Source: Candidatus Zixiibacteriota bacterium
Lineage (GTDB): Bacteria; Zixibacteria; MSB-5A5; SM23-73-2
Length of the DNA: 34,577 bases
Direction of reading: 5' to 3'
NCBI GenBank assembly: GCA_049642665.1
Contig: JBARPA010000329.1
Span: 1 to 34,577, forward strand
The notes under the pieces are model-generated. The model made no database searches, was not told the origin of the DNA, and was given only the letters and a program-made list of their open reading frames with translations. Positions 1-26,887 of the stretch are shown here, one piece after another. Numbering within the stretch: position 1 is the stretch's first letter; each line of letters starts with the position of its first letter. Position numbers and translations under genes: made by a program.

Positions 1-1320
1 GAGATAGGCAGAGAAATTATTGTGCCACTTTTAGAGAGAATGGGGTGTAGAGACGTCAAATTTTGTGGCGGTCCAAGGGAAAAAGGTGCAGACATACGTT
101 ATTCTTTCTCCAGTATACCAGATCAAGTAAAGAAGTTTACTGGTATTCAGATAAAAAAGGGTAATATAGACGCGAAGTCAAAAAACGAAGCTAATATCAC
201 AGAGCTGGTAACACAAGCAAGAAAAGCATTAGTTATTCCTTACTTCGATCCTCTAACGCAGAAGGAATACACGTTGTCAAGGTATATAATATGTGGCTTT
301 GGAGAAATAACTTCTGAGGCTCAAGAATATATCAAACAAAGGCTCAAAGAAGATAAGTTTGAAAAGGATATTGATTTTTGGCCAGGTATGATTATTGCAC
401 AATATATCCACGATTATTATTTAGAGAATTTCACAAAATATTTTAATATTCAAGCTGAGGAACTAGAAGAAACTTACGAAGCCTCTATTAAGCTATTATT
501 TAAAGATTTGTACTCGAGAATGCCACAGGAGGAGGAGATAATTGATATCTGGAATTTCGCCAGAAAGCGAGGGCTTAAACCTAAACAAATTAAGGGAATC
601 CTTACTGATACGGATCTTCAACAAAAGCTGAATGTAATATACAAAGAACTGCTTAAAAGAGAAGTTGATCCTGTTGGTCAGGTTGCTTGGGGATATCTTT
701 ATAGACTAAATCCAAATGAAGAACGCTTAATGTTAATCAGAGAAAGGATAATGCAAAGCCACGAATTCATAATGAAGCTACCTAAAATAAAGTTTTCCTT
801 CAATGATCAACCAATGATACAGGCAAGTTTTGATAGATTATTTCAATCTGTAAATGGATGGATAACATACCATGGAACTGATTGTAAAGGACAACTGAAT
901 ATTATTCACGATGAAGAGGTGAAGGCGTCTGTAGCTGAAATAATTCCATACGAGAACGGAAAATATTTTAGGATTCAGTACCCGATGTCAGTAACTGCTC
1001 ATCAGAGAAAAAAGGTACGATTAAATTTCAAAACAAAACACCATTTTGAATTCTTTGTGTTCTCTTTAGCAAAAGATGGAAAGAATTACTTTGTTAGATA
1101 CACCCCAACTAAAAGTGGGCAATCAAAATCACAGTATGGCGGGATCCAATACGCACTTCATTATATTGGTAAGAATTTCTTGGATAATAAATGGTACAAT
1201 ATAGATATAGATGTAGGTGAAGATTTGAAGTCAGTATTTAATGTTGATCTTTCGCATATATTATATTTCTGCTTTTCTGTAACGGGCCCATTTAAGGTTG
1301 GATATATAGAATTGTTTTAA
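1..1320 (+). CDS. 5'-truncated protein with an Mrr-type (PD-(D/E)xK) restriction-endonuclease-like N-terminal domain, a DUF4214-like segment and an uncharacterised C-terminus
   Basis: Frame 1 is open from base 1 with no stop before the GTG at 22, so the gene probably begins upstream of the window. EIGREIIVPLLERMGCRDV..GGPREKGADIRY..GIQIKKGNI follows the Mrr_cat pattern (lGy..v..gDgGiDi...vQcKr). LLKREVDPVGQVAWGYLYRLNPNEERLMLIRERIMQSHEF resembles DUF4214. Stop TAA at 1318-1320. Confidence 0.6.
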   Translation, partial: EIGREIIVPLLERMGCRDVKFCGGPREKGADIRYSFSSIPDQVKKFTGIQIKKGNIDAKSKNEANITELVTQARKALVIPYFDPLTQKEYTLSRYIICGFGEITSEAQEYIKQRLKEDKFEKDIDFWPGMIIAQYIHDYYLENFTKYFNIQAEELEETYEASIKLLFKDLYSRMPQEEEIIDIWNFARKRGLKPKQIKGILTDTDLQQKLNVIYKELLKREVDPVGQVAWGYLYRLNPNEERLMLIRERIMQSHEFIMKLPKIKFSFNDQPMIQASFDRLFQSVNGWITYHGTDCKGQLNIIHDEEVKASVAEIIPYENGKYFRIQYPMSVTAHQRKKVRLNFKTKHHFEFFVFSLAKDGKNYFVRYTPTKSGQSKSQYGGIQYALHYIGKNFLDNKWYNIDIDVGEDLKSVFNVDLSHILYFCFSVTGPFKVGYIELF

Positions 1321-1335
1321 CTCAATTGACATCAC

Positions 1336-1460
1336 CTTAGGTCTGGAGACCCAGGGCTACCCGGACTCAGTCTTTTAAACGCGGGAGTTAAGTCATAATT
1401 CAAAAGCAAAGAATAAAGAGAGGTATATGTGACATATTCGAATATAAACAAGTTAGGCGC
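1336..1460 (+). repeat. Structured repeat, type E3: P hairpin, second hairpin, A-rich linker, AT palindrome, ending in GTTAGGC
   Basis: P module GGTCTGGAGACCCAGGGCTACCC lies at 1340-1362. CTACCCGG...CGCGGG forms the second hairpin, ATATTCGAATAT is the palindrome, and the element ends ATAAACAAGTTAGGCG with GTTAGGC at 1452-1458. It is homologous to copies at 4729-4890, 6681-6772 and 11221-11340. Confidence 0.85.
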
Positions 1461-1484
1461 AATGCGTAATTTGGAGATTAAAAA

Positions 1485-1883
1485 ATGAGGATATACATAA
1501 CCCATTGTTCTGGAAAGAAAGACGATTCGTTAAAACATACTGGTAAGAAAGTAACTCCAGATAAGTTGTATACCGGAAGTACAACTCAACCTTTCATGAA
1601 TAGATGTAAAGAGAAGCAGGTTAAATGGGCAATTTTCTCAGATTTATATGGTGTTTGGTTTCCAAATGTAGAACATGAATGGTATGACAAACACCCCGAT
1701 ACAGTTACTGAGCAGGAATTCGAGAATCTCGTAGACGATTTTGACCAAAAACTTCGGGAATATGATGAAATTTGGTTTTATTACAAGCCTAGACGTTTTC
1801 ATCGTTTGTATGAGAAGTTATTACAGGGAACCAACCTAAAAGATAAAGTAAAACGATTTACTTGTATCGACGAGATTGTTTAG
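1485..1883 (+). CDS. DUF6884-like hypothetical protein
   Basis: A GGAG motif lies 8 nt upstream of the ATG. MRIYITHCSGKK...KLYTGSTTQPF...WAIFSDLYGVWFPN..EWYD follows my recollection of the DUF6884 pattern (ISCSxxK...ELYxGxxF...ILSAxxGLxxP...xPYD). This was not checked against a database. Confidence 0.5.
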   Translation: MRIYITHCSGKKDDSLKHTGKKVTPDKLYTGSTTQPFMNRCKEKQVKWAIFSDLYGVWFPNVEHEWYDKHPDTVTEQEFENLVDDFDQKLREYDEIWFYYKPRRFHRLYEKLLQGTNLKDKVKRFTCIDEIV

Positions 1884-1894
1884 GTGTAATAAGA

Positions 1895-2608
1895 ATGTCT
1901 GAACTATGTAAATGGCTAAATGAAGGATTGGAACAGCTACCCCTCATTAAATTCCCTTTCAAATTGGAACAATTACCTCAGAAAGGTATATATTTCTTCT
2001 ATGAAAAAGGTGAAATATGGGCCCATGGTCGGGATAACCCAAGAATAGTTAGAATTGGCACACATAAAAACAGAAATTTTAGAAGTCGTATCAAAGAACA
2101 TTTTCTTTTGGATGAATCAAAAATGGGCTTTGATAAGGATAAGCCTAAACCTTCTGATCGAAGCATTTTCAGGAAAAATATCGGCAGGGCATTGCTGAAC
2201 AGAGATAGAGATGACTACCTACAAGTTTGGAAGATAGATTTCATGACACGAGGAAAGAGGGAGTGTTTAGGACATAAACGAGATATAGACAAGGAAAAAA
2301 GAATAGAATCAACAATTACAAGAATCCTTAGAGAAAGATTTTCTTTTAGATTTATTGTGATAGAAAGTCAAACGGAGAGGATGGGAAGCAAAGGACTTGA
2401 AAGTTCTCTTATTGGAACAGTATCGCATTGCAAATTATGTACGCCATCTAATGGCTGGTTAGGACATTTTTCACCTCAGAAACGGATCAAGAATAGTGGC
2501 TTATGGTTAGTCCAACATATAGATTCTGAAGGAATAAATAACCAACATAAGAAAATCATTTCAGATACTATCACGAGAACAAAAGAATGGATTATGAACA
2601 GCAGATAA
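1895..2608 (+). CDS. GIY-YIG nuclease superfamily protein
   Basis: KGIYFFYEKGE..(x13)..IVRIGTH..RSRIKEHF matches GIY-(x10-15)-YIG plus the conserved Arg, and LESSLIG supplies a later conserved Glu. I prefer the ATG at 1895 (AGGTG 8 nt upstream) to the TTG at 1862 in the ORF track. The gene follows the previous stop by 11 nt, so the two are probably co-transcribed. Confidence 0.6.
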   Translation: MSELCKWLNEGLEQLPLIKFPFKLEQLPQKGIYFFYEKGEIWAHGRDNPRIVRIGTHKNRNFRSRIKEHFLLDESKMGFDKDKPKPSDRSIFRKNIGRALLNRDRDDYLQVWKIDFMTRGKRECLGHKRDIDKEKRIESTITRILRERFSFRFIVIESQTERMGSKGLESSLIGTVSHCKLCTPSNGWLGHFSPQKRIKNSGLWLVQHIDSEGINNQHKKIISDTITRTKEWIMNSR

Positions 2609-2784
2609 CACAGCATATACGCTTCTGGCTATGGCTCTTGCCCTTCGAGACGTTGCTCCCTTCAGTCGCAATGTGGTATGTGCTACTTCCGTTAAGTAAA
2701 ATGGAAGAGAAACGATGAATAGAAAAATGATAGAGGATGCAAAACAATCATATTCGCTTATAAACGAGTTTTACGCAATATGCG
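2603..2784 (+). repeat. Mosaic repeat cluster: attC-like element B1, a 5' fragment of module M1, and the 3' end of module M4
   Basis: B1 spans 2603-2697 (AGATAAC...GTTAAGT). AGCATATAC (2612-2620) pairs with GTATGTGCT (2676-2684). M1 (AAAATGGAAGAG..GATGCAAAACAATC, 2698-2749) is joined abruptly to ATATTCGCTTATAAACGAGTTTTACGCAATATGCG, which matches 1434-1466. Confidence 0.8.
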
Positions 2785-2829
2785 TTTGTAGTTGGCAATC
2801 TCAATATGAAATCAGGAGCATATTAGGAT

Positions 2830-4536
2830 ATGGGAATACCTTTACTAAGTGACATTGTCATCGTACTTGGGCTGTCCATTGTAGTACTCTTCGTATGCAG
2901 TCACCTTCGAATACCCACAATTGTGGGATTTTTCCTGACCGGGATGCTGGCAGGGCCTCACGGACTGGGATTGATAAAAGCGGTTCACGAAGTTGAAATC
3001 TTAGCTGAAATCGGGATTGTGTTGTTGCTTTTTACTATTGGAATGGAGTTCTCACTTAAAAACCTGTTGCGCATCAAGAAATCGATCTTGATGGGCGGAT
3101 CGCTTCAGGTGTGGCTAACTTTTTTAGCTGTTTTTGTCATAGCTATGAAACTCGGTCAGTCCTTTAGTGAATCGATATTTTTAGGATTTCTTATATCGCT
3201 CAGCAGCACGGCAATTGTGCTCAAAGTCATCCAGCAAAGAGCAGAGGTTGATAGTCCTTATGGAAGTACTACTCTTGGCATCTTGATTTACCAGGATGTC
3301 ATTATTGTTCCCATGATGCTCTTTACGCCTCTTTTGGTTGGGGCGACAGCCAATTATGGCGTATCCCCTCTTATTCTTCTGATCAAAGGAGTAGGAATCA
3401 TCGCTTTTGTGATTGTCAGTTCTAAATGGATTGTGCCACAGGTATTGTATCAAATTGCAAGAACGCGCAACCGTGAACTATTTCTACTGAGTGTTGTCAT
3501 AATATGCTTTGGCTTTGCCTGGCTGTTCTCCAGTGCAGGATTGTCCCTGGCATTGGGTGCATTTTTAGCAGGATTGATCATATCTGAATCTGAATACGCT
3601 CATCAGGCACTTGGCAATATTTTACCCCTCCGCGATATCTCTATGAGTTTCTTTTTCATCTCCATTGGAATGCTTCTGGACGTCGGTTTTCTATTCCAGC
3701 ACCCGGGTCTCATTGTGCTGATTGCTTTAGGAGTCCTGGCATTAAAGACCTTCATCGCTGGCTTCGCAGCTACTTTATTAGGATTTCCATTTCGTACTGT
3801 AGTTTTGGTTGGTCTGGCACTCAGTCAGGTCGGTGAATTTTCTTTCATTCTCTCTAAGACCGGTATTGAATTTGGTTTACTTGCTGGGGATACTTATCAG
3901 ATGTTTCTGGCTGTCTCTGTGCTGACCATGGCATTAACACCAGTGATCATAGCTTTTGCGCCCCGGACCGCTGATTTTGTCTTGCAGTTACCAATGCCGG
4001 CAAGGTTAAGAACGGGTTTCTCTCCTGTGCAAGAGGTGAAGTTGCCGCGCAAAAAAGATCACCTGGTCATCATTGGATTTGGATTTAACGGAAGGAATCT
4101 GGCGCGGGCTGCCAAGGTAAGGGGTATTCCCTACTCTATTATTGAAATGAATCCTGAGACGGTGAGGGAAGAAAAAATAAAAGGTGAACCAATCCATTAT
4201 GGCGACGCAACCCATAAAGCGGTACTTGGGCGCGCAGACATCAAAGATGCGAGGGTTGCGGTTGTGGCCATCTCTGACCCCGCGGCAACTCGCAGGATTG
4301 TTGAGCTGGTTCGGAAAGTCAACCCCGGGATTTATGTTATAGTGCGAACTCGTTTTATCCAGGAAGTTAAAAGCCTGCGCAGGTTAGGGGCAGATGAAGT
4401 TATTCCCGAGGAATTCGAGACCTCGGTAGAGATCTTTGCACGGGTTCTGGAGAAGTATCTTGTCCCAAGAGATGAGATCGACAAATATATCGATGAAATA
4501 AGATCAGAGGACTACGATATGCTTGGGCCCAGATAA
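2830..4536 (+). CDS. Monovalent cation:proton antiporter, CPA2 family (KefB/YbaL-like), with a C-terminal TrkA-N/RCK domain
   Basis: About 11-12 hydrophobic helices with a Na_H_Exchanger-like N-terminus (MGIPLLSDIVIVLGLS..GFFLTGMLAGPHGLGLI). A Rossmann-type HLVIIGFGFNGRNLARAA..IIEMNP motif sits in the C-terminal third. Confidence 0.85.
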   Translation: MGIPLLSDIVIVLGLSIVVLFVCSHLRIPTIVGFFLTGMLAGPHGLGLIKAVHEVEILAEIGIVLLLFTIGMEFSLKNLLRIKKSILMGGSLQVWLTFLAVFVIAMKLGQSFSESIFLGFLISLSSTAIVLKVIQQRAEVDSPYGSTTLGILIYQDVIIVPMMLFTPLLVGATANYGVSPLILLIKGVGIIAFVIVSSKWIVPQVLYQIARTRNRELFLLSVVIICFGFAWLFSSAGLSLALGAFLAGLIISESEYAHQALGNILPLRDISMSFFFISIGMLLDVGFLFQHPGLIVLIALGVLALKTFIAGFAATLLGFPFRTVVLVGLALSQVGEFSFILSKTGIEFGLLAGDTYQMFLAVSVLTMALTPVIIAFAPRTADFVLQLPMPARLRTGFSPVQEVKLPRKKDHLVIIGFGFNGRNLARAAKVRGIPYSIIEMNPETVREEKIKGEPIHYGDATHKAVLGRADIKDARVAVVAISDPAATRRIVELVRKVNPGIYVIVRTRFIQEVKSLRRLGADEVIPEEFETSVEIFARVLEKYLVPRDEIDKYIDEIRSEDYDMLGPR

Positions 4537-4545
4537 ATTGCCAAA

Positions 4546-4893
4546 GTTGCGAGGATGCAAAACAATCGATAGCAACACGTCTCCTGAGTGAAAAATCAGG
4601 CTTCGGGGTCAGGAGACCAGGGGCTACCCATATATGTACCAGATATATAGAGAGTTCTGAAAAAATGAAAGGACCGGTCGGGCAAGGTGCCCGGCCTACG
4701 AAAAATGAATGATTTTGTGCATTCTGCCCCCTGGGTCAGGAGACCCAGGGCTACCCGGATTTAATCTCTTAGACGCGGGAGGTAAGTCATAATTCGACAC
4801 CAAAGAATAAACAGACGTATATGCGATATGGTCGCATATCTTCCCAATTTGGCAGTACATCCCACACGTTTGGATATAAACAAGTTAGGCGAA
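4546..4893 (+). repeat. Mosaic repeat cluster: M1 3' fragment, then E2 (P plus GC hairpin), then E3
   Basis: GTTGCGA at 4546-4552 is followed by GGATGCAAAACAATCGATAGC..TCTCCTGAGTGAAAAATCAGGC (M1). One P copy lies at 4605-4629. An AT palindrome follows, then hairpin GGTCGGGCA-AGG-TGCCCGGCC (4676-4696) followed by TACG. A second P copy has a perfect 9-bp stem, CCCTGGGTC-AGGA-GACCCAGGG (4729-4750), followed by CTACCC. Then come M3/M4, with ATATGCGA..TCGCATAT, ending in GTTAGGC at 4884-4890. Confidence 0.85.
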
Positions 4894-4944
4894 ATTTATG
4901 AATCGCATCTAGAAGAGCTTATACAAAGAAAGTGAAAGGTAAAT

Positions 4945-6396
4945 ATGAAAGCCCTAATAATTGCTGCAGGACAAGGAAGCAGGCTAAATGATTCAACCAA
5001 AGGTAACCCCAAATCACTAATTAAACTTTTAGGTTTATCCTTGATTGAAAGAGTAATCCTAACTGCAAAACAAGCTGATGTTGACGAATTTGTAATAGTC
5101 GTCGGCTATCTCGGAGAAAAAATAAAAGAGAAATTAGGCGGTGGAAATAAGTATGGGGTAAAGATAGCTTACATTGAAAATAGAGAATGGCAAAGAGGAA
5201 ATGGGGTTTCTGTGTTGAAAGCTAAAGAATTGTTAAATGAAAATTTTGTTCTGTTGATGTCAGACCATATTTTTGATTATCGCATTCTTAGAAAACTCAT
5301 CGATTATGACACAAAGAGTTCAGTGGTTTTAGCTGTTGACAGGAGAAAATCCCTACCGGGGGACACGAAAGTTCTAGAAAAAGAGGGGAATATTGTTGAT
5401 ATTGGCAAGAATATAGAAAAATCAAACTGTATAGATATTGGTATCTTCTTGTTTTCACCAAAAATATTTTCGTATATTGGAGAATCTGTAAAAGAAGGCA
5501 AGACTGAACTTGCAGATGCTATTCATAAAGCTGCTCAGAACAGAGATGCCCAAATATTCGACATCACGAAAATTAACAGCTATATCCCGAGTATGCGCAA
5601 GGAGATTAAAGCTTTCTGGATGGATATTGATACAAAGCAGGATCTAATCGAAGCAAAGAAGATTTTGATTGAGAATTCTTGTAAAGGAAGAAATGACTTA
5701 CTTGCAACCTATGTCAACAAGCCAATAGAAAATTTCATTGTAAGCAGATTGGTAAACACGCGGATTACACCAAACCGGGTTACCATACTAATAAACATAG
5801 TTGCTTATACATCCACATTTTGTTTCCTCAAAGGGCATCTATTATTTGCTTCCCTCCTCACCTTTGTCGTTTCATTTATGGACGGTGTGGACGGAAAACT
5901 CTCAAGAGTGAAATTATCTTTTTCAAATATTGGAAAAATGGAGCACGCATTTGATTACCTATTTGAACACTCGTGGTATATAGCATTGGCAATCTGTTTA
6001 TCAAATACATTTGGAACAATACCGGTTTTACTTAGCACATTCATACTTCTCTTCGATGGGTTTTCTATGAAATGTGGAAGTGCATTTGGAAAAGGGATCA
6101 AAAATCGTCCACTTCAAGATTATGGACGAATTGAACAACTATTTAGAAAATTTGATGGTAGAAAGAACAGTTATATAATCCTTATCTTAATAGGTGTTTT
6201 GCTAAATGTGCCTTTCTGGTCATTAGTTGCCATATTTGTATGGTCATTAGTCAGTGCTATATTTTATTCTTCGAGAACTATAAAACATCTCCATTATATG
6301 GATCGTAAGAAACATGAACAAAAATTTGGGGATTCAAAAACTCTTCGCAACTCTTCGAGTTACTCGGTACTACCGCGCTCGCCTGACAGCGGATAA
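4945..6396 (+). CDS. Bifunctional sugar-phosphate nucleotidyltransferase / CDP-alcohol phosphatidyltransferase (IPCT/DIPPS-like architecture)
   Basis: The N-terminus MKALIIAAGQGSRL is an NTP_transferase G-loop. The C-terminal half is membrane-embedded and carries DGVDGKLSR(x8)G, the first half of the CDP-alcohol transferase signature. The last ~5 codons run into repeat element B2, which starts at 6381. Confidence 0.7.
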   Translation: MKALIIAAGQGSRLNDSTKGNPKSLIKLLGLSLIERVILTAKQADVDEFVIVVGYLGEKIKEKLGGGNKYGVKIAYIENREWQRGNGVSVLKAKELLNENFVLLMSDHIFDYRILRKLIDYDTKSSVVLAVDRRKSLPGDTKVLEKEGNIVDIGKNIEKSNCIDIGIFLFSPKIFSYIGESVKEGKTELADAIHKAAQNRDAQIFDITKINSYIPSMRKEIKAFWMDIDTKQDLIEAKKILIENSCKGRNDLLATYVNKPIENFIVSRLVNTRITPNRVTILINIVAYTSTFCFLKGHLLFASLLTFVVSFMDGVDGKLSRVKLSFSNIGKMEHAFDYLFEHSWYIALAICLSNTFGTIPVLLSTFILLFDGFSMKCGSAFGKGIKNRPLQDYGRIEQLFRKFDGRKNSYIILILIGVLLNVPFWSLVAIFVWSLVSAIFYSSRTIKHLHYMDRKKHEQKFGDSKTLRNSSSYSVLPRSPDSG

Positions 6397-6772
6397 AAGG
6401 CTGCGGTGCTACGCACCTTTGCCCAAATCCAACGTTACGGCTGGACTTCGGATACGCTTGCAAGGTCAAGTAAAATGGAAGAAAAAGGAGGAATAGAAAA
6501 ATGATAGAGGATGCAAGAGAATGGATACTAAGATGTCTCCTGAGTGAAAAAGTAGGCTAATGGGTCTGGAAACCCAGGGCTACCCGTATATGCACCAGAT
6601 ATAAAGGGAGTTCTGAAAAAATGAAAGGACCGGTCGAGCAAGGTGCCCAACCTACGAAGAGTCAATGATTTACATTACTAATGGGTACCGCGATTTAATC
6701 TTTTAGACGCAGGAAGTAGTCGTAATTCAAAAGCAAAGAATAAAGAGAGGTATAGACGAAATTTTGTTTGGC
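6381..6772 (+). repeat. Mosaic repeat cluster: attC-like B2, full M1, E2, then an E3 whose P module is internally deleted
   Basis: B2 spans 6381-6471 (GCCTGAC...GTCAAGT). M1 spans 6472-6560, and P lies at 6561-6585. The GC hairpin at 6632-6652 has two mismatches. Then CTAATGGGTACCGCGATTTAATC (6679-6700) is a P copy lacking 16 nt. M3 follows, and the cluster ends in GTTTGGC at 6766-6772. Confidence 0.8.
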
Positions 6773-6803
6773 AACTCCAAAACCTGAAAAAAGGAGGCAA
6801 AAA

Positions 6804-8501: not shown

Positions 8502-8507
8502 GAGAGA

Positions 8508-8666
8508 GTTAAGCAGGCCCTGGGTCGGTAGACCCGGGGTTACCCATATATAGACAAGATATCTATAGAGCTCTCAACGGATGTAAAATTATGGTCGGGC
8601 AAGGTGCCCGACCTACGAAGAATAGATGATTTATATTACCGTAGGCAGGGCTCCCCAGCCCTGCTA
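8508..8666 (+). repeat. Repeat cluster: GTTAAGC, P, the E2 GC hairpin, and one inverted REP-like hairpin
   Basis: GTTAAGC lies at 8508-8514. P is CCCTGGGTC-GGTA-GACCCGGGG followed by TTACCC (8518-8545). The perfect hairpin GGTCGGGCA-AGG-TGCCCGACC (8593-8613) is followed by TACG. Then comes GTAG (8641-8644) followed by GCAGGGCT-CCCC-AGCCCTGC, which has the opposite polarity. Confidence 0.8.
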
Positions 8667-8759
8667 AACGAGATTTGGATGGTGATCAGGGAAATAACCG
8701 AATCATGCGACATTTTGAAGTCAAATATTATCTATCTTATGTGTGAGGTATGAAAAACT

Positions 8760-9491
8760 ATGGATTTTTCTAATGTTTATGAGGATGGTAAGCGTGCGGA
8801 GTCATACGCCAAACTTGAATTTCCGGGGACTTATTACTTAGCATACAGGGATATACCTGAAATTGTTCTTAAACACGTTAAAGGAAGAAAAACAATAGAC
8901 TTCGGATGCGGAACAGGAAGATCAACAAGATTTCTTAAAAAATGCGGATTTGATGCGGTCGGTATCGATATCTCAAAGGATATGATAAAAAAGGCAAAAG
9001 AACTTGACCCTGATGGTGATTACCGATTGAATGTAGATGATGATTTTAAACAATTTGAAAAGCATCACTATGATTTGATTTTATCGGTATTTACTTTTGA
9101 CAATATTCCAGATGTTGAAAAAAGAATAAAACTGCTTAAAGGACTTAGCAATTTGCTAAATAAAGAAGGCAGGATAATTCTTATTAATTCAACTCCCGAA
9201 ATCTATATAAATGAATGGTCATCCTTTTCCACTAAGGACTTTCCGGAGAATAGAAAGGCAAAAAGCGGGGAAAAAGTGAAAATCGTAATGACAGACGTGG
9301 AAGACAAAAGACCAGTAGAAGATATTGTATGGTTTAATGAAGATTATTCAGAATTATTTGCCAGGACTGGATTAGAATTAATCGAATCACATAAACCTTT
9401 AGCCAAGGACGATGAACCATACGAATGGATTAATGAAACAAAAATCGCACCCTGGATTATTTATGTATTAAAAAAGGGGATCGCCCAATAA
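8760..9491 (+). CDS. Class I SAM-dependent methyltransferase
   Basis: Motif I is IDFGCGTGRSTRFL, and the post-I acidic residue is in VGIDIS. The length of 243 aa is typical of the Methyltransf_11/25 families. Confidence 0.8.
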   Translation: MDFSNVYEDGKRAESYAKLEFPGTYYLAYRDIPEIVLKHVKGRKTIDFGCGTGRSTRFLKKCGFDAVGIDISKDMIKKAKELDPDGDYRLNVDDDFKQFEKHHYDLILSVFTFDNIPDVEKRIKLLKGLSNLLNKEGRIILINSTPEIYINEWSSFSTKDFPENRKAKSGEKVKIVMTDVEDKRPVEDIVWFNEDYSELFARTGLELIESHKPLAKDDEPYEWINETKIAPWIIYVLKKGIAQ

Positions 9492-9497
9492 TGTCCA

Positions 9498-9583
9498 AAA
9501 CAGCGTATATGCGATATAGACGAATGTTTACAAACTTTTCACAATATTCGACATACTCTAATATGAACGAGTCAGACAAAATG
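9498..9583 (+). repeat. M4-type repeat fragment (3' part of E3 only)
   Basis: AACAGCGTATATGCGATATAG matches 4810-4830 (AACAGACGTATATGCGATATGG). The end ATATGAACGAGTCAGACAAAAT matches ATATAAACAAGTTAGGCGAAAT. GTCAGAC lies at 9571-9577. Confidence 0.6.
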
Positions 9584-9646
9584 CTCACTACGGACAAAGG
9601 TTATCTAAAATAACAAAAAGTGTTTTTATTGCAAAAGAGGTTCAAA

Positions 9647-10645
9647 ATGAAGACTTTATGGCTCATTCTGATCGTACTGGTTGCCATAGCTGTTTTGATT
9701 TTGGCGCTGACCTACCCGGGCTATCAAAGTGAAATGCAGGCAGCGCGTGACGGGTTGTTATTGAATAGCGAAATAATGCATACAGACCTTGGTGATATTG
9801 AATATTCGATGAAGGGGGAAGGTTCACCGATCCTTTTGCTCCACGGTGCCGGGGGCGGTTATGACCAGGGGCTCTGGCTTGGCAAGGTAAGCCTTGGGGA
9901 TGGTTATAAATTCATCTCGGTTTCTCGGTTTGGTTATCTTCGCTCGCCAGTTCCTGAGAATGCTTCGATCAAAAAACAGGTTGCGCTATACCTTGCTCTT
10001 CTTGACAATCTGAACATAGAGAGAGTTCTTGTCGTCGCGGGCTCAGCTGGAGGCCCCTCAGCCTTGCAGTTTGTTCATGAATATCCTGACCGATGTTCGG
10101 CATTGATACTATTTTCCGCCCGAAGTATGTTTCAGGCACCAGGTGATAAAGAGATGTTTTACGTTAACATCATTCATCTCATCCAGCAATCTGATTTTGC
10201 ATACTGGCTCTTCGCCAAGTTTTTCCAATCTGTAATTCTGGAGCTTATGGGAATTCCTACTGAAGTATACAAGAGTTTTACTCCGGAACAGAAAGAACTG
10301 GCTCAGGAGATGCTGGATATGATGCATCCCATGAGTCAAAGGTACAAGGGGACGATACACGATGGGGAAATGGTCCTGCTTGATAGTGTGTCTATGAGCG
10401 AGATATCTGCGCCTATACTGATAATACACAGCAAAGACGATGCACTGGTGAGCTACGAGCACGCTGAGTACGTTCATAAAAACATTAAACAATCGAAACT
10501 GATACTTTTCGACACAGGCGGACATGTAATGCTATCTCAAATGAATGAAGTCAGGCAATACGTAAAAACATTCTTGCGCGATATCTTAAAATCAAATACA
10601 TCAATACTGTTTTATTCTGAAACAAAAATAGTACCCCTTTACTGA
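9647..10645 (+). CDS. Alpha/beta-fold hydrolase with an N-terminal membrane anchor
   Basis: LLLHGAGGG forms the oxyanion region. VVAGSAGGPSA is a GxSxG-type nucleophile elbow. HSKDD and GGH are the Asp and His regions. The ATG at 9647 (AGAGG 7 nt upstream) is preferred to the GTG at 9620. Confidence 0.8.
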   Translation: MKTLWLILIVLVAIAVLILALTYPGYQSEMQAARDGLLLNSEIMHTDLGDIEYSMKGEGSPILLLHGAGGGYDQGLWLGKVSLGDGYKFISVSRFGYLRSPVPENASIKKQVALYLALLDNLNIERVLVVAGSAGGPSALQFVHEYPDRCSALILFSARSMFQAPGDKEMFYVNIIHLIQQSDFAYWLFAKFFQSVILELMGIPTEVYKSFTPEQKELAQEMLDMMHPMSQRYKGTIHDGEMVLLDSVSMSEISAPILIIHSKDDALVSYEHAEYVHKNIKQSKLILFDTGGHVMLSQMNEVRQYVKTFLRDILKSNTSILFYSETKIVPLY

Positions 10646-10705
10646 AGCATCGACGTAAATTTGACACAGAGCGCAAAGTAATTGAAAGGAGATAAGTAGA
10701 TTCAG

Positions 10706-11200
10706 ATGGTAATCAGGGAAATGAGTGAGGGGGACATAGGAGCCTGTGTTGACCTTTCTAATCGAGTGAGAAGGGAATCCTGGGAGAAGTTTGAAAAGGA
10801 GCTTTATCCCCAGTATCTTTTTGAGGAGGAGCTGAAACAATATTCTGATGAGACTCTGTCTCGCTTTATCAAAAGTGATAATTCCTTTGCCTTTGTGAGC
10901 GTGGATAAATCTGAGGTGATGGGTCTGGCTATGGGTAGGGTGAACGAAGGCGGACTTGTGGATTTGTCCTGGATATGCGTTGATCCTTTAGCTCGAGGCA
11001 AGGGAATCGGAAAGAAGTTGATAAACAAAGTCGTAGAATATTCAAAAAGCAAAGGCTGCCATAAGATTTTTGCCTATACTTTTCCCGCTATTGCTCCCAC
11101 GGTCAGTTTTTATCTGAGATGTGGATTTGTGCCTGAAGCATATTTTAGAAAGCACTGGTATGGACTGGATTTTGTGATGATGAGCAAATGGCTGGAATAA
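10706..11200 (+). CDS. GNAT family N-acetyltransferase
   Basis: Acetyl-CoA motif A is ICVDPLARGKGIGKKLI. The size (164 aa) and C-terminal GF..E are typical. No repeat separates it from the hydrolase gene, so the two form one unit. Confidence 0.8.
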   Translation: MVIREMSEGDIGACVDLSNRVRRESWEKFEKELYPQYLFEEELKQYSDETLSRFIKSDNSFAFVSVDKSEVMGLAMGRVNEGGLVDLSWICVDPLARGKGIGKKLINKVVEYSKSKGCHKIFAYTFPAIAPTVSFYLRCGFVPEAYFRKHWYGLDFVMMSKWLE

Positions 11201-11220
11201 AAAATTAGATTTTATGATTG

Positions 11221-11340
11221 CCCTGGGTCTGGAGACCCAGAACTACCCAGATATAATTCTTTAAACACTGGGTGTAGTCATAATTCAAAAACAGAGAATA
11301 AAGAGACCTATATTAGAGATATCCGGATATAAGCAGGTGA
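11221..11340 (+). repeat. Structured repeat, type E3 (diverged copy)
   Basis: P is CCCTGGGTC-TGGA-GACCCAG followed by AACTACCC (11221-11248). The second hairpin, CTACCCAG..CTGGGTGTAG, carries a compensated G:C to A:T change relative to other copies. It also has the AATAAAGAGA linker and the ATATCCGGATAT palindrome. Confidence 0.8.
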
Positions 11341-11346
11341 TGTTCA

Positions 11347-11802
11347 ATGCAATTTTTCAAGTTGTCAGATTATTCAAAGGAGACAAAAGCTCACGGTCTG
11401 GCGTGGATATCACTGAGTGTGGCTATTGGCATCCACGTATTTGATGAAGCCATTACCGACTTTCTCTCTTTCTACAATCGTTTTGTGGATTCGATACGGC
11501 AGCACGCTCCATTCCTGCCACTGCCAACATTTACCTATGGAGTATGGCTGGCTGGTTTAATCGTTGGAATCATCATCTTACTTTGCCTAAGCCCTCTTGT
11601 CTTTCGTAGCAACCGATGGATGTTTCTGGTATCTTATCTGTTAGGGACGATTATGATCGTAAATGCAGTAGCTCATATGGCAGGATCTGTCATCATGGGA
11701 GGACCTATGCCAGGAGTCTATTCGTCATTTCTATTGCTTGCCACAGCCGTTTTTTTGATAATTAATGCTCGGAAACATCAATTAAAATCGAGGCTCTGTT
11801 AA
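11347..11802 (+). CDS. Integral membrane protein of unknown function (about 4 TM helices; HxxEE-like HVFDE motif)
   Basis: Four hydrophobic segments. The motif IHVFDEAITDF resembles the HXXEE-domain family, which I recall from memory with low certainty. Confidence 0.55.
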   Translation: MQFFKLSDYSKETKAHGLAWISLSVAIGIHVFDEAITDFLSFYNRFVDSIRQHAPFLPLPTFTYGVWLAGLIVGIIILLCLSPLVFRSNRWMFLVSYLLGTIMIVNAVAHMAGSVIMGGPMPGVYSSFLLLATAVFLIINARKHQLKSRLC

Positions 11803-11849
11803 GAATCCTTCTAACACATAAATGGAGATTAATATTCCGGAGATTTTAA

Positions 11850-11969
11850 ATGAAGACTAATAAAAGTAGGAGTAATAAGTACATAATTCGTAATCTGGCG
11901 ATTCTGGGTATGACCCTTTCTCTGGCCGAGGCTATTGGAGTTAAGATTTGGTTTTCGCCCGGCATTTGA
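11850..11969 (+). CDS. Possible 39-aa small membrane peptide (absent from the ORF track)
   Basis: ATG at 11850 with GGAGA 6 nt upstream. The peptide is MKTNKSRSNKYIIRNLAILGMTLSLAEAIGVKIWFSPGI, with a basic N-terminus and one hydrophobic stretch. Stop TGA at 11967-11969. There is no other support. Confidence 0.25.
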   Translation: MKTNKSRSNKYIIRNLAILGMTLSLAEAIGVKIWFSPGI

Positions 11970-11977
11970 CACCGAAT

Positions 11978-12030
11978 CCTGGGTCGGGAGACCCAGGGCT
12001 ACCCGGATTTAAGCTTTTAAATGCAGGGAG
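11978..12030 (+). repeat. Truncated E3 repeat (P plus the start of M3)
   Basis: CCTGGGTC-GGGA-GACCCAGG followed by GCTACCC (11978-12004), then GGATTTAAGCTTTTAAATGCAGGG containing the stem ATTTAA/TTAAAT. It is fused directly to the ribosome-binding region of the next gene. Confidence 0.8.
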
Positions 12031-12038
12031 ACGAGGAA

Positions 12039-12509
12039 ATGAAAGACAAAAAAGATTTAATTGCCTACTGCGGGCTTTATTGTGGTACCTGTAGTTTCAA
12101 GGTTGCATATGAGGAAAAAGATCATAAACACCTGCAGGATATGCCCTCAAAATATGATAAATATAAGGATGCTGAATTGCAATTCTGTCCTGGCTGCAGA
12201 TTAGATGCTCAATCCGGTGGATGCAAAATACGAGAATGTGCTATGAGTAAGGATATCCCTCATTGCGGTGAATGTGATGAATTCCCCTGCGAATCATTAA
12301 TCGAATTCAATAATGATGGCATGCCGCATCATTCGGATTCAATTAACAATTTAAGAAAGTTGAGGAATAAAGGAGAAGAATCCTGGCTGGCCTATCAGGC
12401 AAAGAGATGGGAATGTGAATGTGGTGCTAAACTATCCTGGTATTTAAAAAAATGCACAAAATGCTTGAAGCCAGTTAAAATAAGCTTTACAATAAATGAA
12501 AAAAAGTAA
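12039..12509 (+). CDS. DUF3795 domain protein (Cys-rich, putative Zn/Fe-S binding)
   Basis: MKDKKDLIAYCGLYCGTC...CPGC...CKIRECA...CGECDEFPC matches the DUF3795 Cys pattern. I prefer the ATG at 12039, because the track start at 12021 lies inside the repeat and the paralog begins at the homologous MKDK. Confidence 0.75.
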   Translation: MKDKKDLIAYCGLYCGTCSFKVAYEEKDHKHLQDMPSKYDKYKDAELQFCPGCRLDAQSGGCKIRECAMSKDIPHCGECDEFPCESLIEFNNDGMPHHSDSINNLRKLRNKGEESWLAYQAKRWECECGAKLSWYLKKCTKCLKPVKISFTINEKK

Positions 12510-12559
12510 CCTTGTAAAGACATTTTATGTTAAATAAAAATAGACAAGGAAACAAGAAG

Positions 12560-13012
12560 ATGAAAGATAAACAGGAATTACTTGCATATTGCGGGCTTTA
12601 TTGCGGCGATTGTTTAGGTTACACCGGTTTACTCGCCAAGAGGGCAAAAAGCTTAATGACGGTGCTGGAGAAACATCAGTTTGATCGAACTGCAAAAACT
12701 GTGTTTCCCAAGGAGCTTAAAGAGTATGATAGATTTCATCAGATGCTGGGATTTATGACCGGTTTGAAATGCCCTAAAATCTGCAGGGAAAGGAAAGACA
12801 ATGAAACATCCTGCGAGATCAGGAAATGCTGCATAGATAAGGACATTTATGCCTGTTATGAGTGCGAAGATTTTGAGACCTGTGACAAGCTCAAGTCATT
12901 TATGAAGGGGCTTCATTTTGATTCCTGCGTGAGGAATCTGAAAGCTATTAAGGAAATGGGGCTGGATGCCTGGATAAAAAAGGGCAAAAAAGTCTGGTAC
13001 TGGAATGAGTAA
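12560..13012 (+). CDS. DUF3795 domain protein (tandem paralog)
   Basis: MKDKQELLAYCGLYCGDC...CPKIC...CEIRKCC...CYECEDFETC. The start at 12560 was chosen by homology with the upstream paralog. The track start is 12527. Confidence 0.7.
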   Translation: MKDKQELLAYCGLYCGDCLGYTGLLAKRAKSLMTVLEKHQFDRTAKTVFPKELKEYDRFHQMLGFMTGLKCPKICRERKDNETSCEIRKCCIDKDIYACYECEDFETCDKLKSFMKGLHFDSCVRNLKAIKEMGLDAWIKKGKKVWYWNE

Positions 13013-13226
13013 ATGATTGCTCATATTTCAACGGGAACCGAAAATCTGCCTTCGATTCGCTTTTTGCCGTGGCCTTAGCTCGGTCACACCAGAGTGGATA
13101 AAGGAGAAATCCAAGATTTCTCCAAATTGTCTTCTGTGATTTGCTTTATGCTGGAAACGTCAGACGCAACCTGCCTACGGGTCGCCTTTGGGGAAGTTCA
13201 ATAAATACATTTGAAAGACTGATCTT

Positions 13227-13994
13227 ATGGGTGTGAGAATGAAACAGATTGATGTTAAGAAAAGAATTAGGAAACTTCTTTTGAGAGCCAGAGAAATCTC
13301 CAGAGAGAAAGGAATTTACTCCGTTGTTCGTTCTGGAGTTAAAATAACTGTCAATTGGTTAGTAAACTATCTTTGCTATTGTTACTATCGAAAAATCAAA
13401 TGGGCAGAGATCTTTACATTCCAAGGGAAAACCTATCGTTATTTCTATCATAGATATAATCATACCTGGAAAAACGAAAGAGCAGTCGAAATCCCCATTA
13501 TTTGGGCATATTTGAAAAAATATCATGCAAGGAGAACTCTTGAAGTAGGTAACGTTCTCTCACATTATTTCCGTGTTAATCACGATATTATAGACAAATA
13601 TGAGAAGGCGGATGGTGTAATTAATAAAGATATTGTTGATTTCAAGCCTCTTAAGAAATATGATTTAATCGTTAGCATTTCAACCTTAGAACACGTTGGC
13701 TGGGATGAAAATCCACGAGAACCCGTTAAAATTCTTCATGCTATTGAGAACTTTAAAAATCTTCTTTCTCCTGGTGGCACAGCAATTGCCACAGTACCAT
13801 TAGGTTATAACTCTGAAATGGATGAGCTCTTAAAAGAGAGGAAGACAAAATTCACCAAACAATACTACCTGAAACGAATCACCAAAAACAATAAATGGAT
13901 AGAAGCAGGTTGGGATGATGTTTGTGATGCGAAATATGGAGAGCCTTTTCCCAACGCAAGCGCATTGGTTATCGGTATCATTGTAAGAAAATGA
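13227..13994 (+). CDS. SAM-methyltransferase-like protein (degenerate motif I)
   Basis: LEVGNV.. (a weak motif I), DIVDF, YDLIVSISTLEHVG and LLSPGGTAIATVP follow the class I methyltransferase order. The start is uncertain (13227 or 13239). Confidence 0.5.
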   Translation: MGVRMKQIDVKKRIRKLLLRAREISREKGIYSVVRSGVKITVNWLVNYLCYCYYRKIKWAEIFTFQGKTYRYFYHRYNHTWKNERAVEIPIIWAYLKKYHARRTLEVGNVLSHYFRVNHDIIDKYEKADGVINKDIVDFKPLKKYDLIVSISTLEHVGWDENPREPVKILHAIENFKNLLSPGGTAIATVPLGYNSEMDELLKERKTKFTKQYYLKRITKNNKWIEAGWDDVCDAKYGEPFPNASALVIGIIVRK

Positions 13995-14269
13995 TTTGGC
14001 GACCCTTTCGGCAGACTTTTCGGAGTACCTGGCAGTCCTCGACTCCATCGGGAGCGTACAACACGGGCTATAACTCCACTTCGTTCGCACCAATGGGCCT
14101 ACGCCAACTTGGTACAGCCTGAAAACGTTAGGTAAAATGGAAGAAGAAAAAGGAATAGAAAGATGATAGAAGATGCAGAACAATGGATAGCAATGGGTCT
14201 TCTGAGGGAAAAAGCAGCCTAACGGGTCTGGAGAACCAGGGCTGCCCGGATTTAAAGCTTAAGTTATGC
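13995..14269 (+). repeat. Mosaic repeat cluster: B3, full M1, P, and a truncated M3
   Basis: B3 ends GGTACAGCCTGAAAACGTTAGGT, with GTTAGGT at 14127-14133. M1 spans 14134-14223 and ends in a perfect inverse-core-like GCCTAAC (14217-14223). P lies at 14224-14247. GGATTTAAAGCTTAA is followed by GTTATGC (14263-14269), which overlaps the ATG of the next gene. Confidence 0.8.
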
Positions 14270-14889
14270 TGGAAAACCTGTATTTAAAAGGCAAAGGAGT
14301 GATAATACGAGATCTGAAAAGGGGGGATATTGACGAAAGATTAAAATGGAAACCATATCCTGATCCATTGTATTATCATTATAATCGACCTCCTTTGTCT
14401 AAGGTTGAAAAGGAACTGTGGTATATGAGAAAAAGAGAGGACCCGAATTTGGTATATCTTTCTGTTGATAATTTGAAAGGTGATCTGATCGGCTTTTTGT
14501 TGCTTTACAAAATCGACAAAAAGGCTAGAGCCTCCTGGATGGGCATTTATCTGGGATATGAATACATTGACCAGGGATATGGTACCGATGCCCTTCAAAC
14601 TATGATGAAGTATTACTTTGAGGAATTGGATTATGAGAAACTGTTTCTGGATGTTGCAACTTTGAACAAAAGAGCCATCCGATGCTATGAGAAATGTGGA
14701 TTCAAACATTTAAGAACCAAATTCAATCTTCACGATCCCCGAACCCAAATTGATGTATTCTCAAATGATAGATTTAAAAATGTGAGAAAGTATTTCAGGA
14801 AAAAAGGAAAAGACATTTTAGTACAATTTGAGGAGATGGTGATAACCAGGGAGATGTGGCTGAACAGGAAAGGGTGTCCCAACGGATGA
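14266..14889 (+). CDS. GNAT family N-acetyltransferase (RimJ/RimL-like)
   Basis: An Acetyltransf_3-like layout: IIRDLKRGDID, MGIYLGYEYIDQGYGTDAL and NKRAIRCYEKCGFKH. Confidence 0.8.
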   Translation: MLENLYLKGKGVIIRDLKRGDIDERLKWKPYPDPLYYHYNRPPLSKVEKELWYMRKREDPNLVYLSVDNLKGDLIGFLLLYKIDKKARASWMGIYLGYEYIDQGYGTDALQTMMKYYFEELDYEKLFLDVATLNKRAIRCYEKCGFKHLRTKFNLHDPRTQIDVFSNDRFKNVRKYFRKKGKDILVQFEEMVITREMWLNRKGCPNG

Positions 14890-14944
14890 AACGGAATTTT
14901 CAATTTCATTATTGTTGTTTCTGCTTTTAGGAGTTGTATATTAA

Positions 14945-14973
14945 AAGACGCAGGCTGAAAGAACCTGCGTCTT
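14945..14973. terminator. Bidirectional stem-loop between convergent genes
   Basis: AAGACGCAGG-ctgaaagaa-CCTGCGTCTT is a perfect 10-bp stem. A/T-rich flanks lie on both sides, though the U-tracts are short. It sits between the GNAT stop (14889) and the stop of the small minus-strand ORF (14997). Confidence 0.6.
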
Positions 14974-14996
14974 TAGAAAAGATTAGAAGCTTTGCC

Positions 14997-24659: not shown

Positions 24660-24682
24660 GTTATAATGGAGGAATGTAGTTG

Positions 24683-24758
24683 CTCGATTTATCGAGTATA
24701 TTTGTAGTTTGCCAATTTATCGTCATAAAACCAGCCCAATGAATTGGGCAACTACAAC
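24683..24758. repeat. About 75-bp hairpin-forming element, copy A (direct repeat with 26570-26644)
   Basis: CTCGATTTATCGAGTATATTTGTAGTTTGCCAATTTATCG..CCCAATGAATTGGGCAACTACAA. Internal arms GTAGTTTGCCAATT and AATTGGGCAACTAC form an inverted repeat. By eye it is about 85% identical to copy B. Confidence 0.75.
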
Positions 24759-24845
24759 CAATGAAGGATGAAACGGATATTGGAGTGTGAACATTTATGT
24801 TCACCTCTGGGTTAAGCTAAAGCTTCACACTCCAAAAATCATACG

Positions 24846-24973
24846 GTAGCACAGGTTGTCTCAACCTGTATTTTTCTCACACCTATTTGAAAGAAAGGGT
24901 AGGGCAAGGTCTCCTGACCTTGTCGTAGGTACCCCTCGAATCCAGTTGGTTGGGCAATTGGATTTGCCCAACC
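24846..24973 (+). repeat. Cluster of REP-like hairpins, each preceded by GTAG; diverged homologs of the array's P and E2 hairpins in the opposite orientation
   Basis: GTAG (24846-24849), C, then ACAGGTTG-tct-CAACCTGT followed by ATTTTT. GTAG (24899-24902) followed by GGCAAGGTC-tcct-GACCTTGTC. GTAG (24925-24928) followed by GGTTGGGCAA-ttggat-TTGCCCAACC (24948-24973). On the minus strand, CAAGGTCAGGAGACCTTGCCCTACCC aligns with P (CTGGGTCAGGAGACCCAGGGCTACCC) with two compensated pair changes. Confidence 0.7.
24851..24875 (+). terminator. Possible intrinsic terminator for the DUF1847 gene (the first REP-like hairpin)
   Basis: The 8-bp stem ACAGGTTG/CAACCTGT has a 3-nt loop and is followed by ATTTTT. 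It lies 190 nt past the stop codon. Confidence 0.4.
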
Positions 24974-25114
24974 TGAAGACCTGATGGCTGAAATCCCCGA
25001 AACGGGTCTTGACGACAATTCCACCACCAACTGAAATTTGACCCACCTTGAGGGCAAGGCGATTCTATTAGATTTAAGTAAAGAATCTAAATTGATATGT
25101 TTAATCTCAAAATT

Positions 25115-26852: not shown

Positions 26853-26887
26853 ATTTTCATGTCAACTAACGACAAATTACTAATTCC

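Follow-up and report, generated by a model that had tools for sequence, protein, structure and literature searches.

We analyzed a 34,577-base stretch of DNA (the window) that makes up an entire contig of a Candidatus Zixiibacteriota metagenome-assembled genome (MAG). The first 15 kb hold accessory genes and lie between the core genes enolase-DivIC-RecO-GlyRS on the left and DUF4412-like-patatin on the right. The spacers of this region are filled with repeats. An earlier note on this DNA had read the region as an integron-like cassette array. The region is not an integron, and its repeats are repetitive extragenic palindromic (REP) sequences and bacterial interspersed mosaic elements (BIMEs). 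Another assembly of this organism (ENA scaffold_65, L001) is 100% identical to window positions 1-6723 and reaches 8.5 kb to the left of base 1. Those 8.5 kb encode an MFS protein, a polyprenyl synthase, a 725-aa protein, enolase, DivIC, RecO, and GlyRS.

The region contains 15 genes in about 11 units. The large open reading frames (ORFs) of 1-14,889 are all on the + strand. Both points agree with the earlier note. The shared orientation is not peculiar to the array, as core genes to the left of base 1 share it for 7 kb or more. Seven of the genes form a backbone that is also found in relatives, and the others are variable units. The genes are as follows.

1..2608, + strand: ORF1, DUF6884, and GIY-YIG genes, filling a variable slot that adjoins GlyRS (Pfam, PADLOC).
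2830-4536, + strand: antiporter gene, backbone.
4945-6396, + strand: NTP-transferase gene, seen in the window only.
6768-8501, + strand: DUF4932 gene, backbone.
8760-9491, + strand: methyltransferase (MT) gene, backbone.
9620..10645, + strand: alpha/beta hydrolase gene, variable unit of the slot between MT and GNAT1.
10706..11200, + strand: GNAT1 gene, backbone.
11347..11802, + strand: HXXEE protein gene, variable unit of the slot between GNAT1 and DUF3795a.
12021..13012, + strand: DUF3795a and DUF3795b genes, backbone.
13227..13994, + strand: methyltransferase-like gene MT2, a unit seen in the window only, with no REP on its 5' side.
14266..14889, + strand: GNAT2 gene, backbone, right end of the region.

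Pfam matches were obtained for the Na/H antiporter-TrkA_N protein, the NTP-transferase/CDP-alcohol (CDP-OH) transferase, DUF4932, the alpha/beta hydrolase, HXXEE, the GNATs, and the DUF3795 proteins. Pfam supports the antiporter, methyltransferases (two), GNATs (two), and DUF3795 proteins (two) named in the earlier note. The match of MT2 is weak, and that of DUF6884 falls below the cut-off. The DUF4932 protein contains the motif HEWSH. The earlier note had also named nucleases. This holds for the GIY-YIG gene at 1862-2608, which was assigned to GIY_YIG_3 (PF26468) in a precomputed annotation and by PADLOC; a direct Pfam scan gave nothing. It is unproven for ORF1, which encodes 455 aa, starts 47 nt before base 1, and has no family match in Pfam or PADLOC.

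Repeat modules, labeled A to G, recur at nine of the ten junctions between units, as described before. The junction at 13013-13226 resembles them only weakly. A 23-nt core, GGTCNGGAGACCCAGGGCTACCC, has eight copies, all on the + strand, where none are expected. The repeat features are as follows.

1335..1362, + strand: REP type C, with a 9-bp stem, a 4-nt loop, and an unpaired CTACCC; it starts 15 nt past the ORF1 stop.
1363..1465, + strand: modules F and G, after the REP and upstream of DUF6884; the GTTAGGC at 1452 is part of the repeat.
2691..2779, + strand: modules A and G, ahead of the antiporter gene, with no REP hairpin.
4602..4629, + strand: REP type C, slightly decayed, preceded by module B at 4565-4587.
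4676..4699, + strand: REP type E (GGTCGGGCAAGGTGCCCGGC + CTAC), with another stem and the same tag.
4729..4895, + strand: composite C-F-G, made up of REP C followed by modules F and G, before the NTP-transferase gene.
6558..6585, + strand: REP type C, in the junction 6397-6767 with modules A, B, C, D, E, and F.
6632..6655, + strand: REP type E.
8518..8545, + strand: REP type C, starting 16 nt past the DUF4932 stop.
8593..8664, no single strand: inverted REP doublet, BIME/REPIN-like (REPIN, REP doublet forming hairpins), with a type E hairpin and CTAC at 8593-8616 and GTAG and GCAGGGCTCCCCAGCCCTGC at 8641-8664.
9505..9582, + strand: module G in duplicate, ahead of the hydrolase gene, with no REP hairpin.
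11221..11348, + strand: composite C-F-G, upstream of HXXEE; the left copy of a direct REP pair around the HXXEE unit.
11977..12004, + strand: REP type C, the right copy of that pair, orthologous to the single GNAT1/DUF3795a REP of relatives.
14127..14247, + strand: modules A and B and then REP C (14220-14247), ahead of the GNAT2 gene; relatives have a junction orthologous to B and C.
24680..25040, no single strand: BIME-like cluster outside the array, with X1 at 24680-24757, REPs on the - strand at 24846-24869 and, as a relative of type C, at 24896-24924, and module X2.
26567..26924, no single strand: second BIME-like cluster, with a direct X1 copy at 26567-26644, X3, and two GGGCGGA...TCCGCCC+CTAC REPs at 26826-26852 and 26900-26924.

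The earlier note had described the repeats as strictly of one orientation and as ending at about 14.9 kb. Neither claim stood. An inverted REP lies at 8641-8664, and module B, which precedes three core copies, is an inverted REP that has decayed. Module B at 4565-4587 and REP C at 4602..4629 together are a REPIN-like doublet. REPs bearing the tag of the array copies form clusters at 24.68-25.04 kb and 26.57-26.92 kb, and these clusters include one inverted copy of the core hairpin family. The two clusters bracket a variable SBBP gene (25115-26473, - strand). X1, X2, and X3 (24.7-25.0 and 26.6-26.8 kb) also recur in many metagenome loci that carry the REP. The longer modules A, B, D, F, and G are BIME-like linker sequences. 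The doublet at 8593-8664 is also present in the relative L126, and the L036 orthologue of the double-G stretch is 97% identical.

The core module is a GTAG-tagged REP of a family whose members share the tag and differ in their stems. It consists of CCCTGGGTC-NGGA-GACCCAGGG followed by CTACCC, which gives a 9-bp stem, a 4-nt loop, and an unpaired tail. Read on the opposite strand, it is GGGTAG followed by the hairpin. It is a short stem-loop within the 20- to 40-nt class. Other hairpins of the window have stems unrelated to the core and the same tail. They are GGTCGGGCAAGGTGCCCGRCC-TAC (three copies), GCAGGGCTGGGGAGCCCTGC-CTAC (inverted, at 8641-8664), and GGGCGGA...TCCGCCC-CTAC (two copies near 26.8-26.9 kb). 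On the - strand near 24.85-24.92 kb are ACAGGTTGAGACAACCTGTG-CTAC and a hairpin related to the core. The CTAC sits 0 to 2 nt past the 3' arm in every type C copy and in five other stem types. In a census of perfect hairpins (stem of at least 7 bp), 9 of the 36 in the window carry the CTAC/GTAG tag, and all nine are GC-rich and intergenic and comprise six stem types. This census replaced a looser count of hairpins followed by CTAC against mononucleotide shuffles, which was uninformative (13 versus 8.9 expected), as 7-bp stems are common by chance. Seven spacers in the visible 43 kb of this genome hold 17 or more tagged hairpins, inside and outside the array.

The stem covaries. We aligned 50 distinct family members, in which the four inner pairs and the tag are fixed by construction as the search anchor and the five outer pairs are unanchored. 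The five outer pairs showed 105 double-change cells, compared with 39.5 +/- 5.2 in shuffled alignments, and none of 500 shuffles reached this value. Slid controls collapsed. The stem is paired in 91.8% of cells, and all five variable pairs are compensated. The outer-stem variants include GACAA/TTGTC, TTCTG/CAGAA, GTCAA/TTGAC, and CCCTG/CAGGG, among others. A second hairpin after the tag (CCCRG...CYGGG) appeared by eye to have compensatory variants; it was absent from the RNAalifold prediction, and the alignment changes register there.

The main REP superfamily is recognized by an unpaired GTAG at one end of a 20- to 40-nt palindrome (PMC3733652). Other hallmarks are mosaic clusters (BIMEs), a location downstream of ORFs, and the flanking of REP-associated tyrosine transposase (RAYT) genes (PMC3733652). 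The repeats at this locus have a hairpin with an unpaired tag and a covarying stem, and their family is dispersed and flanks RAYT genes; we identify them as GTAG-tagged REPs.

Dispersal was seen in several genomes. When species-representative genomes were scanned for the exact pattern, 16 stretches matched. The sister MAG (GCA_964447175.1) had 14 exact matches in 13 stretches on 12 contigs. It carries an Ignavibacteria label yet has this locus, and its GlyRS is 94% identical. Further matches were in Zixibacteria RBG-1 and another Zixiibacteriota MAG. The sister-MAG hairpins lie in spacers beside core-looking ORFs, in either orientation relative to the genes. Judged by N-terminal sequence, these neighbors probably include TyrRS, MscL, MurJ, a signal peptidase, and IlvC. 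A metagenome scan retrieved 78 loci with the repeat, many of which are inverted, REPIN-like doublets. Doublets with a 40-nt offset were present at 15 metagenome loci and 4 sister-MAG loci.

Three of the metagenome loci encode Y1/HUH transposase-like proteins. Two of these proteins pass the NCBIfam equivalog model NF047646, "REP-associated tyrosine transposase" (cut-off, 80 bits), with 122 bits for the L113 ORF and 102 bits for the L118 ORF. The L113 RAYT gene (1015-1539) has REP doublets of the core architecture on both sides, at 948-1013 and 1563-1618. The L118 RAYT gene (1895-2551) has one REP per side, inverted, at 2004-2029 and 2573-2598. Both loci are REPtrons. No RAYT gene was found in the sister-MAG loci examined.

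Several further observations concern the repeats and their transposases. A third REP of L118 (2226-2251) lies in frame within the RAYT gene, just past the HUH motif, where it adds about 11 residues (AGSDRSPDLSS). The N terminus of the same protein has a similar REP-derived peptide. At L110 240-370, a Y1-transposase-like gene that scores 71.5 bits on the RAYT model, below the cut-off, adjoins tandem X1-type REPs (GTAGTTGCCCAATTTATTGGGC). The arrangement is a hint of a separate transposase for the window's X1 family. The REP 3' arm and tag (GGAGACCCAGGGCTACCCAAAT, period of about 22 nt) stand in tandem, up to about five times, at L121 540-840 and are also in tandem at L028 82-126, L039 3190-3240, and L122 1716-1770. 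The tandem copies point to slippage, or to a hairpin that was cut and rejoined repeatedly. Independent assemblies break within the repeat modules: Logan contigs start at 1398, and ENA scaffold_65 ends at 6723. The sister MAG splits inside the MT gene beside a REP (start of L028, end of L127). Fragmentation at repeats may hide such loci in MAGs.

The integron model did not hold. It predicts attC sites at the junctions. We scanned for attC pairs with a custom search for RYYYAAC...GTTRRRY partners 45 to 180 nt apart and complementary at 6 or more of 7 positions. None lies at a junction. The whole window contains one pair, inside a gene at 18632-18767, compared with about 4 expected. No imperfect palindrome or inverted repeat spans any junction. 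The GTTRRRY-like heptamers listed in the earlier note are at the coordinates that it gave. Their proposed position 27 to 70 nt before a start codon holds at 1452 and 4884; the heptamers at 2691, 8508, and 14127 are 139, 252, and 139 nt upstream. Each of the five perfect heptamers merely belongs to a repeat module, and GTTRRRY is not enriched in the window (49 matches versus 61 +/- 8.6 expected).

The integrase was also absent. The earlier note had placed an intI gene and attI upstream of base 1, and the 8.5 kb there consists of the MFS to GlyRS genes. No Phage_integrase-type domain was found among the scanned ORFs of the 34.6-kb contig. No integrase was found in any relative's locus examined, and L126 and L127 have the same left-flank core genes. 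With no R''/R' pairs at the junctions, no IntI in the visible 43 kb, and a dispersed hairpin family, we rejected an attC array. The dispersed REPs, a stable backbone, and inconsistent breakpoints likewise do not fit an integron. A miniature inverted-repeat transposable element was also rejected. No inverted repeat frames C-F-G or any junction module, and the copies start and end at differing module boundaries.

We reached seven independent relatives of the locus through homologues of GNAT2, HXXEE, and GlyRS. The gene orders are as follows, with slashes between units and a and b denoting the two DUF3795 genes.

Window: GlyRS / ORF1, DUF6884, GIY-YIG / antiporter / NTP-transferase / DUF4932 / MT / hydrolase / GNAT1 / HXXEE / DUF3795a,b / MT2 / GNAT2 / (58 aa, ArsR) / DUF4412-like, patatin.
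L126: GlyRS / 249 aa, PRT, FMN_red / DUF4932 / antiporter / MT / GNAT1 / MFS / DUF3795a,b.
Sister MAG (L127 and L028): GlyRS / ApeA, 269 aa / MT / DsrE, ABC, ABC2 / GNAT1 / DUF3795a,b / GNAT2 / DUF4412-like.
L039: Trypsin_2 / DUF4932 / antiporter / MT / GNAT1 / DUF3795a,b / GNAT2.
L036: MT / hydrolase / GNAT1 / DUF3795a,b / GNAT2.
L122: DUF4932 / MT / GNAT1 / HXXEE / DUF3795a,b / GNAT2 / (58 aa, ArsR).
L121: GNAT1 / DUF3795a,b / HXXEE / GNAT2.

The syntenic backbone consists of DUF4932, antiporter, MT, GNAT1, DUF3795a, DUF3795b, and GNAT2. Relatives run DUF4932-antiporter-MT, and the window has the antiporter before DUF4932. The backbone proteins are 82-92% identical (amino acids) to those of the closest relatives, L126 and L028, and the flanking core proteins are 82-94% identical. 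The backbone is at core-gene identity and was therefore inherited vertically. Three slots differ in content among the relatives: MT to GNAT1, GNAT1 to DUF3795a, and DUF3795b to GNAT2. The slot beside GlyRS holds ORF1-DUF6884-GIY-YIG in the window, 249aa-PRT-FMN_red in L126, and ApeA in the sister MAG. The hydrolase gene is present in L036, absent from L039, L122, and L126, and swapped for DsrE-ABC-ABC2 in L028. The HXXEE gene is in the same slot in L122 and in the slot between DUF3795b and GNAT2 in L121. It is replaced by MFS in L126 and absent elsewhere. The gene and about 170 nt of its 3' flank are thus found in two different slots.

Some of these changes coincide with REPs. At the GNAT1/DUF3795a junction, each relative has one core REP, a short tail, and a ribosome-binding site. 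The same junction of the window reads REP - F-G - HXXEE - flank - REP. The left REP of the HXXEE unit continues the GNAT1 side, and the right REP continues the DUF3795a side. The SBBP beta-propeller gene has the same signature, outside the array and on the other strand. It has 78-nt direct copies of the REP-bearing repeat X1 on both sides, 86% identical and within the BIME clusters. In L031, a single mosaic cluster with no SBBP gene lies between DUF1847 and fumarase. Other events follow differing patterns. The hydrolase junctions carry module G only, and the L126 MFS unit and the L122 HXXEE unit have a REP on the upstream side only. There is therefore no single consistent crossover site. The earlier proposals of cassette-like units and of presence/absence differences among relatives stood in part. 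The slots vary, HXXEE changes slot, and the array has its own repeat subfamily. The integron mechanism did not stand, the backbone is syntenic, and breakpoints meet a REP in some events only.

We conclude that the locus is very probably a REP/BIME-punctuated accessory region that is remodeled by recombination, with a repeat family that is associated with RAYTs, and not an integron. From the known biology of their family, RAYT transposases would recognize such a hairpin with its tag in single-stranded DNA and probably spread REPs. The hairpins just past stop codons would be transcribed as 3'-end stem-loops in this codirectional region. Recombination within the spacers that bear repeats would account for the slot-wise gene changes. 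It would probably proceed by a swap of segments among related genomes, with backbone genes and REPs as anchors, by deletion between direct REPs, and by reinsertion. Integrase-mediated cassette capture would not be the source of these changes.

Several findings weigh against this conclusion. Contigs from five samples of the window's strain keep one gene order, so that no ongoing shuffling is visible; three aligned same-strain contigs are 100% identical to the window. The RAYT genes were seen only in the metagenome scan, on contigs of unassigned taxonomy, and none was seen in the visible part of the window's own genome. The genome-wide dispersal of REPs was shown in relatives, and the window's own genome is visible over 43 kb only. 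Several insertions are not REP bounded (hydrolase, MT2, and MFS on its 3' side), and REPs therefore cannot be the sole recombination substrate. Most REPs of the array stand alone and point the same way, unlike classical BIMEs, in which the orientation alternates. A private stem subfamily (3' arm C[AG]GGG) makes up 15 of 20 array copies and 0 of 121 copies elsewhere; the lone L009 copy was counted as array, and orthologous copies are included, so these counts are not independent. The C-F-G composite, of about 135 nt, stands before six genes (DUF6884, NTP-transferase, DUF4932, HXXEE, MFS, and antiporter). The family is on 12 sister-MAG contigs and at 78 metagenome loci, and the subfamily and the composite have so far been found at this locus only. 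They are not as simple genome-wide transposition predicts. These private features suggest local spread by recombination or concerted evolution, not genome-wide transposition. The direction of each gain or loss was assigned by parsimony alone.

Among the other explanations, the least improbable is that the modules are kept mainly for expression and that gene turnover is unrelated to them, although we doubt it. The REP hairpin would then be a 3'-end RNA stabilizer or attenuator and F-G a shared promoter or operator leader, with a ATATTCGAATAT-type palindrome 20 to 70 nt before start codons. REPs do start 15 to 19 nt past stop codons at three junctions, and REPs are described as lying mostly 3' of ORFs and as plausibly transcribed (PMC3733652). 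F-G is always upstream of, and co-oriented with, a gene, and the six genes differ. REPs at orthologous junctions are retained, with compensatory stem changes, in relatives that are about 80% identical in DNA. However, the modules showed no consistent promoter or terminator site, with sigma-70-like promoters (38 versus 41.8 expected) and intrinsic terminators (17 versus 11.5 expected) not enriched, and had no Rfam match (at gathering or E <= 1). The sister-MAG REPs stand in either orientation to their flanking genes, and the duplicated REPs around HXXEE and the duplicated X1 around SBBP are left unexplained. A role in expression and remodeling by recombination are not mutually exclusive. One candidate product of the modules, a small peptide in A-B (19-codon ORF with a strong Shine-Dalgarno sequence, 6501-6560 and 14163-14222), was rejected. 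It shows 2 synonymous versus 8 nonsynonymous changes, and its reading frame is lost at 4551 and 2727.

Loss alone is improbable. The ancestor would have had all of the variable genes, and the differences would be deletions between direct REPs, by recombination or slippage, with no insertions. Direct REPs flank HXXEE and direct X1 copies flank SBBP where relatives hold exactly one copy, and deletion between direct repeats is mechanistically the simplest route. But the ancestor would need at least three alternative contents per slot: HXXEE, MFS, or nothing between GNAT1 and DUF3795a, and hydrolase, DsrE-ABC-ABC2, or nothing between MT and GNAT1. It would also need HXXEE in two slots simultaneously. 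The slot beside GlyRS has three unrelated gene sets, and G+C varies from 34% to 46% along the array. Still less credible, and in our judgment very unlikely, is a cassette system with noncanonical sites (the tagged hairpins or C-F-G), at which an unseen integrase elsewhere in the genome or a RAYT-like HUH enzyme would insert, excise, and reshuffle gene units. The locus would then be a cassette array on private REP hairpins, an integrase-free analogue of an integron, with RAYT/HUH action on folded single strands as the possible agent. The three slots with alternative contents, the move of HXXEE along with its 3' flank, and the direct REPs around HXXEE where relatives have one would fit such a system. 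The subfamily and C-F-G are private to the array, as attC types are to a chromosomal integron, and the copies are mostly single and co-oriented; we therefore keep a small probability on a REP-based mechanism. Against it, 43 kb of this genome and the relatives' loci contain no integrase, and the junctions lack R''/R' pairs. The breakpoints are inconsistent, as hydrolase and MT2 lack REPs and MFS and the L122 HXXEE have a 5' REP only. The backbone of seven genes is stable and diverges as core genes do. At orthologous junctions, the REPs persist from relative to relative instead of turning over, and there are no structural variants among the five samples.

Other features of the region were noted. 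The G+C content is 34-36% in ORF1, DUF6884/GIY-YIG, and NTP-transferase (1-2000 and 5000-6000) and 44-46% in the antiporter and DUF4932 genes (3000-5000 and 7000-8000). These swings are consistent with later acquisition of the low-GC units. The GIY-YIG protein matches the PADLOC candidate defense protein PDC-M57B (E = 1e-56), and its gene overlaps the DUF6884 gene (window 1485-2608 for the two). The sister MAG has an ApeA/HEPN protein (PDC-S58, E = 6.5e-118) in the slot after GlyRS (L127 11431-12825). Because of these two proteins, the slot looks like a defense-gene hot spot. An ArsR-family regulator (window 15253-15549, - strand) is 99% identical in protein to L122 5828-6193, and the neighboring genes are 80-85% identical. 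The regulator and its adjoining 58-aa ORF are missing from L028, L036, L039, and L031. This pattern may reflect a recent exchange between lineages.

These results remove a false integron lead. REP/BIME clusters among codirectional accessory genes can mimic a cassette array. The converse confusion occurred in Vibrio, where the Vibrio cholerae repeats (VCRs) were once taken for REPs, and the GTAG tag separates the two quickly. The results also document GTAG REPs, REPIN-like doublets, and REPtrons for the Zixibacteria lineage; no paper that mentions REPs in Zixibacteria was found in the literature searched. The repeat-rich spacers coincide with slot-wise gene turnover, including that of the defense-gene slot beside GlyRS. 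The private REP subfamily and the slot change of one gene bear on whether REPs mark plasticity zones or help to create them.

The locus shares most with the GTAG REPs, BIMEs, and REPINs and their RAYTs in E. coli, Pseudomonas, and Stenotrophomonas. Common to both are a 20- to 40-nt GC-rich palindrome with an unpaired GTAG end, several stem families with one tag, and an extragenic location, mostly just downstream of ORFs. Both have singles, inverted doublets, mosaic clusters with linkers, and RAYT genes between inverted copies, and assemblies break at both. Unlike the known systems, this one is in the phylum Zixibacteria, its copies here are mostly single and co-oriented, and a locus-private stem subfamily is fused to the locus-private C-F-G of about 135 nt.

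The locus resembles sedentary chromosomal integrons and clusters of attC sites lacking integrases (Vibrio VCR arrays) in its co-oriented small accessory genes and its homogeneous, array-specific repeat. It also shares with them GNATs, methyltransferases, and DUF proteins, unit-level differences between relatives, and repeats that act as folded hairpins. It differs in having no R''-L''/L'-R' structure, no GTTRRRY core paired with an inverse core, and no IntI or attI. Its hairpins are 22 nt, compared with the 55- to 140-nt imperfect palindromes of attC. The vertically inherited backbone, the genome-wide dispersal of the repeat, and the inconsistent breakpoints also set it apart.

Neisserial intergenic mosaic elements and minimal mobile elements likewise place mosaic repeat modules between conserved genes, with slot contents that differ by strain. 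Exchange there probably goes via homologous recombination after DNA uptake. The sequences here are unrelated to the neisserial elements and come from another phylum, the repeats are GTAG REPs, and there is no evidence for transformation or uptake sequences. The GTAG REP/BIME class is known, and its Zixibacteria member is new here.

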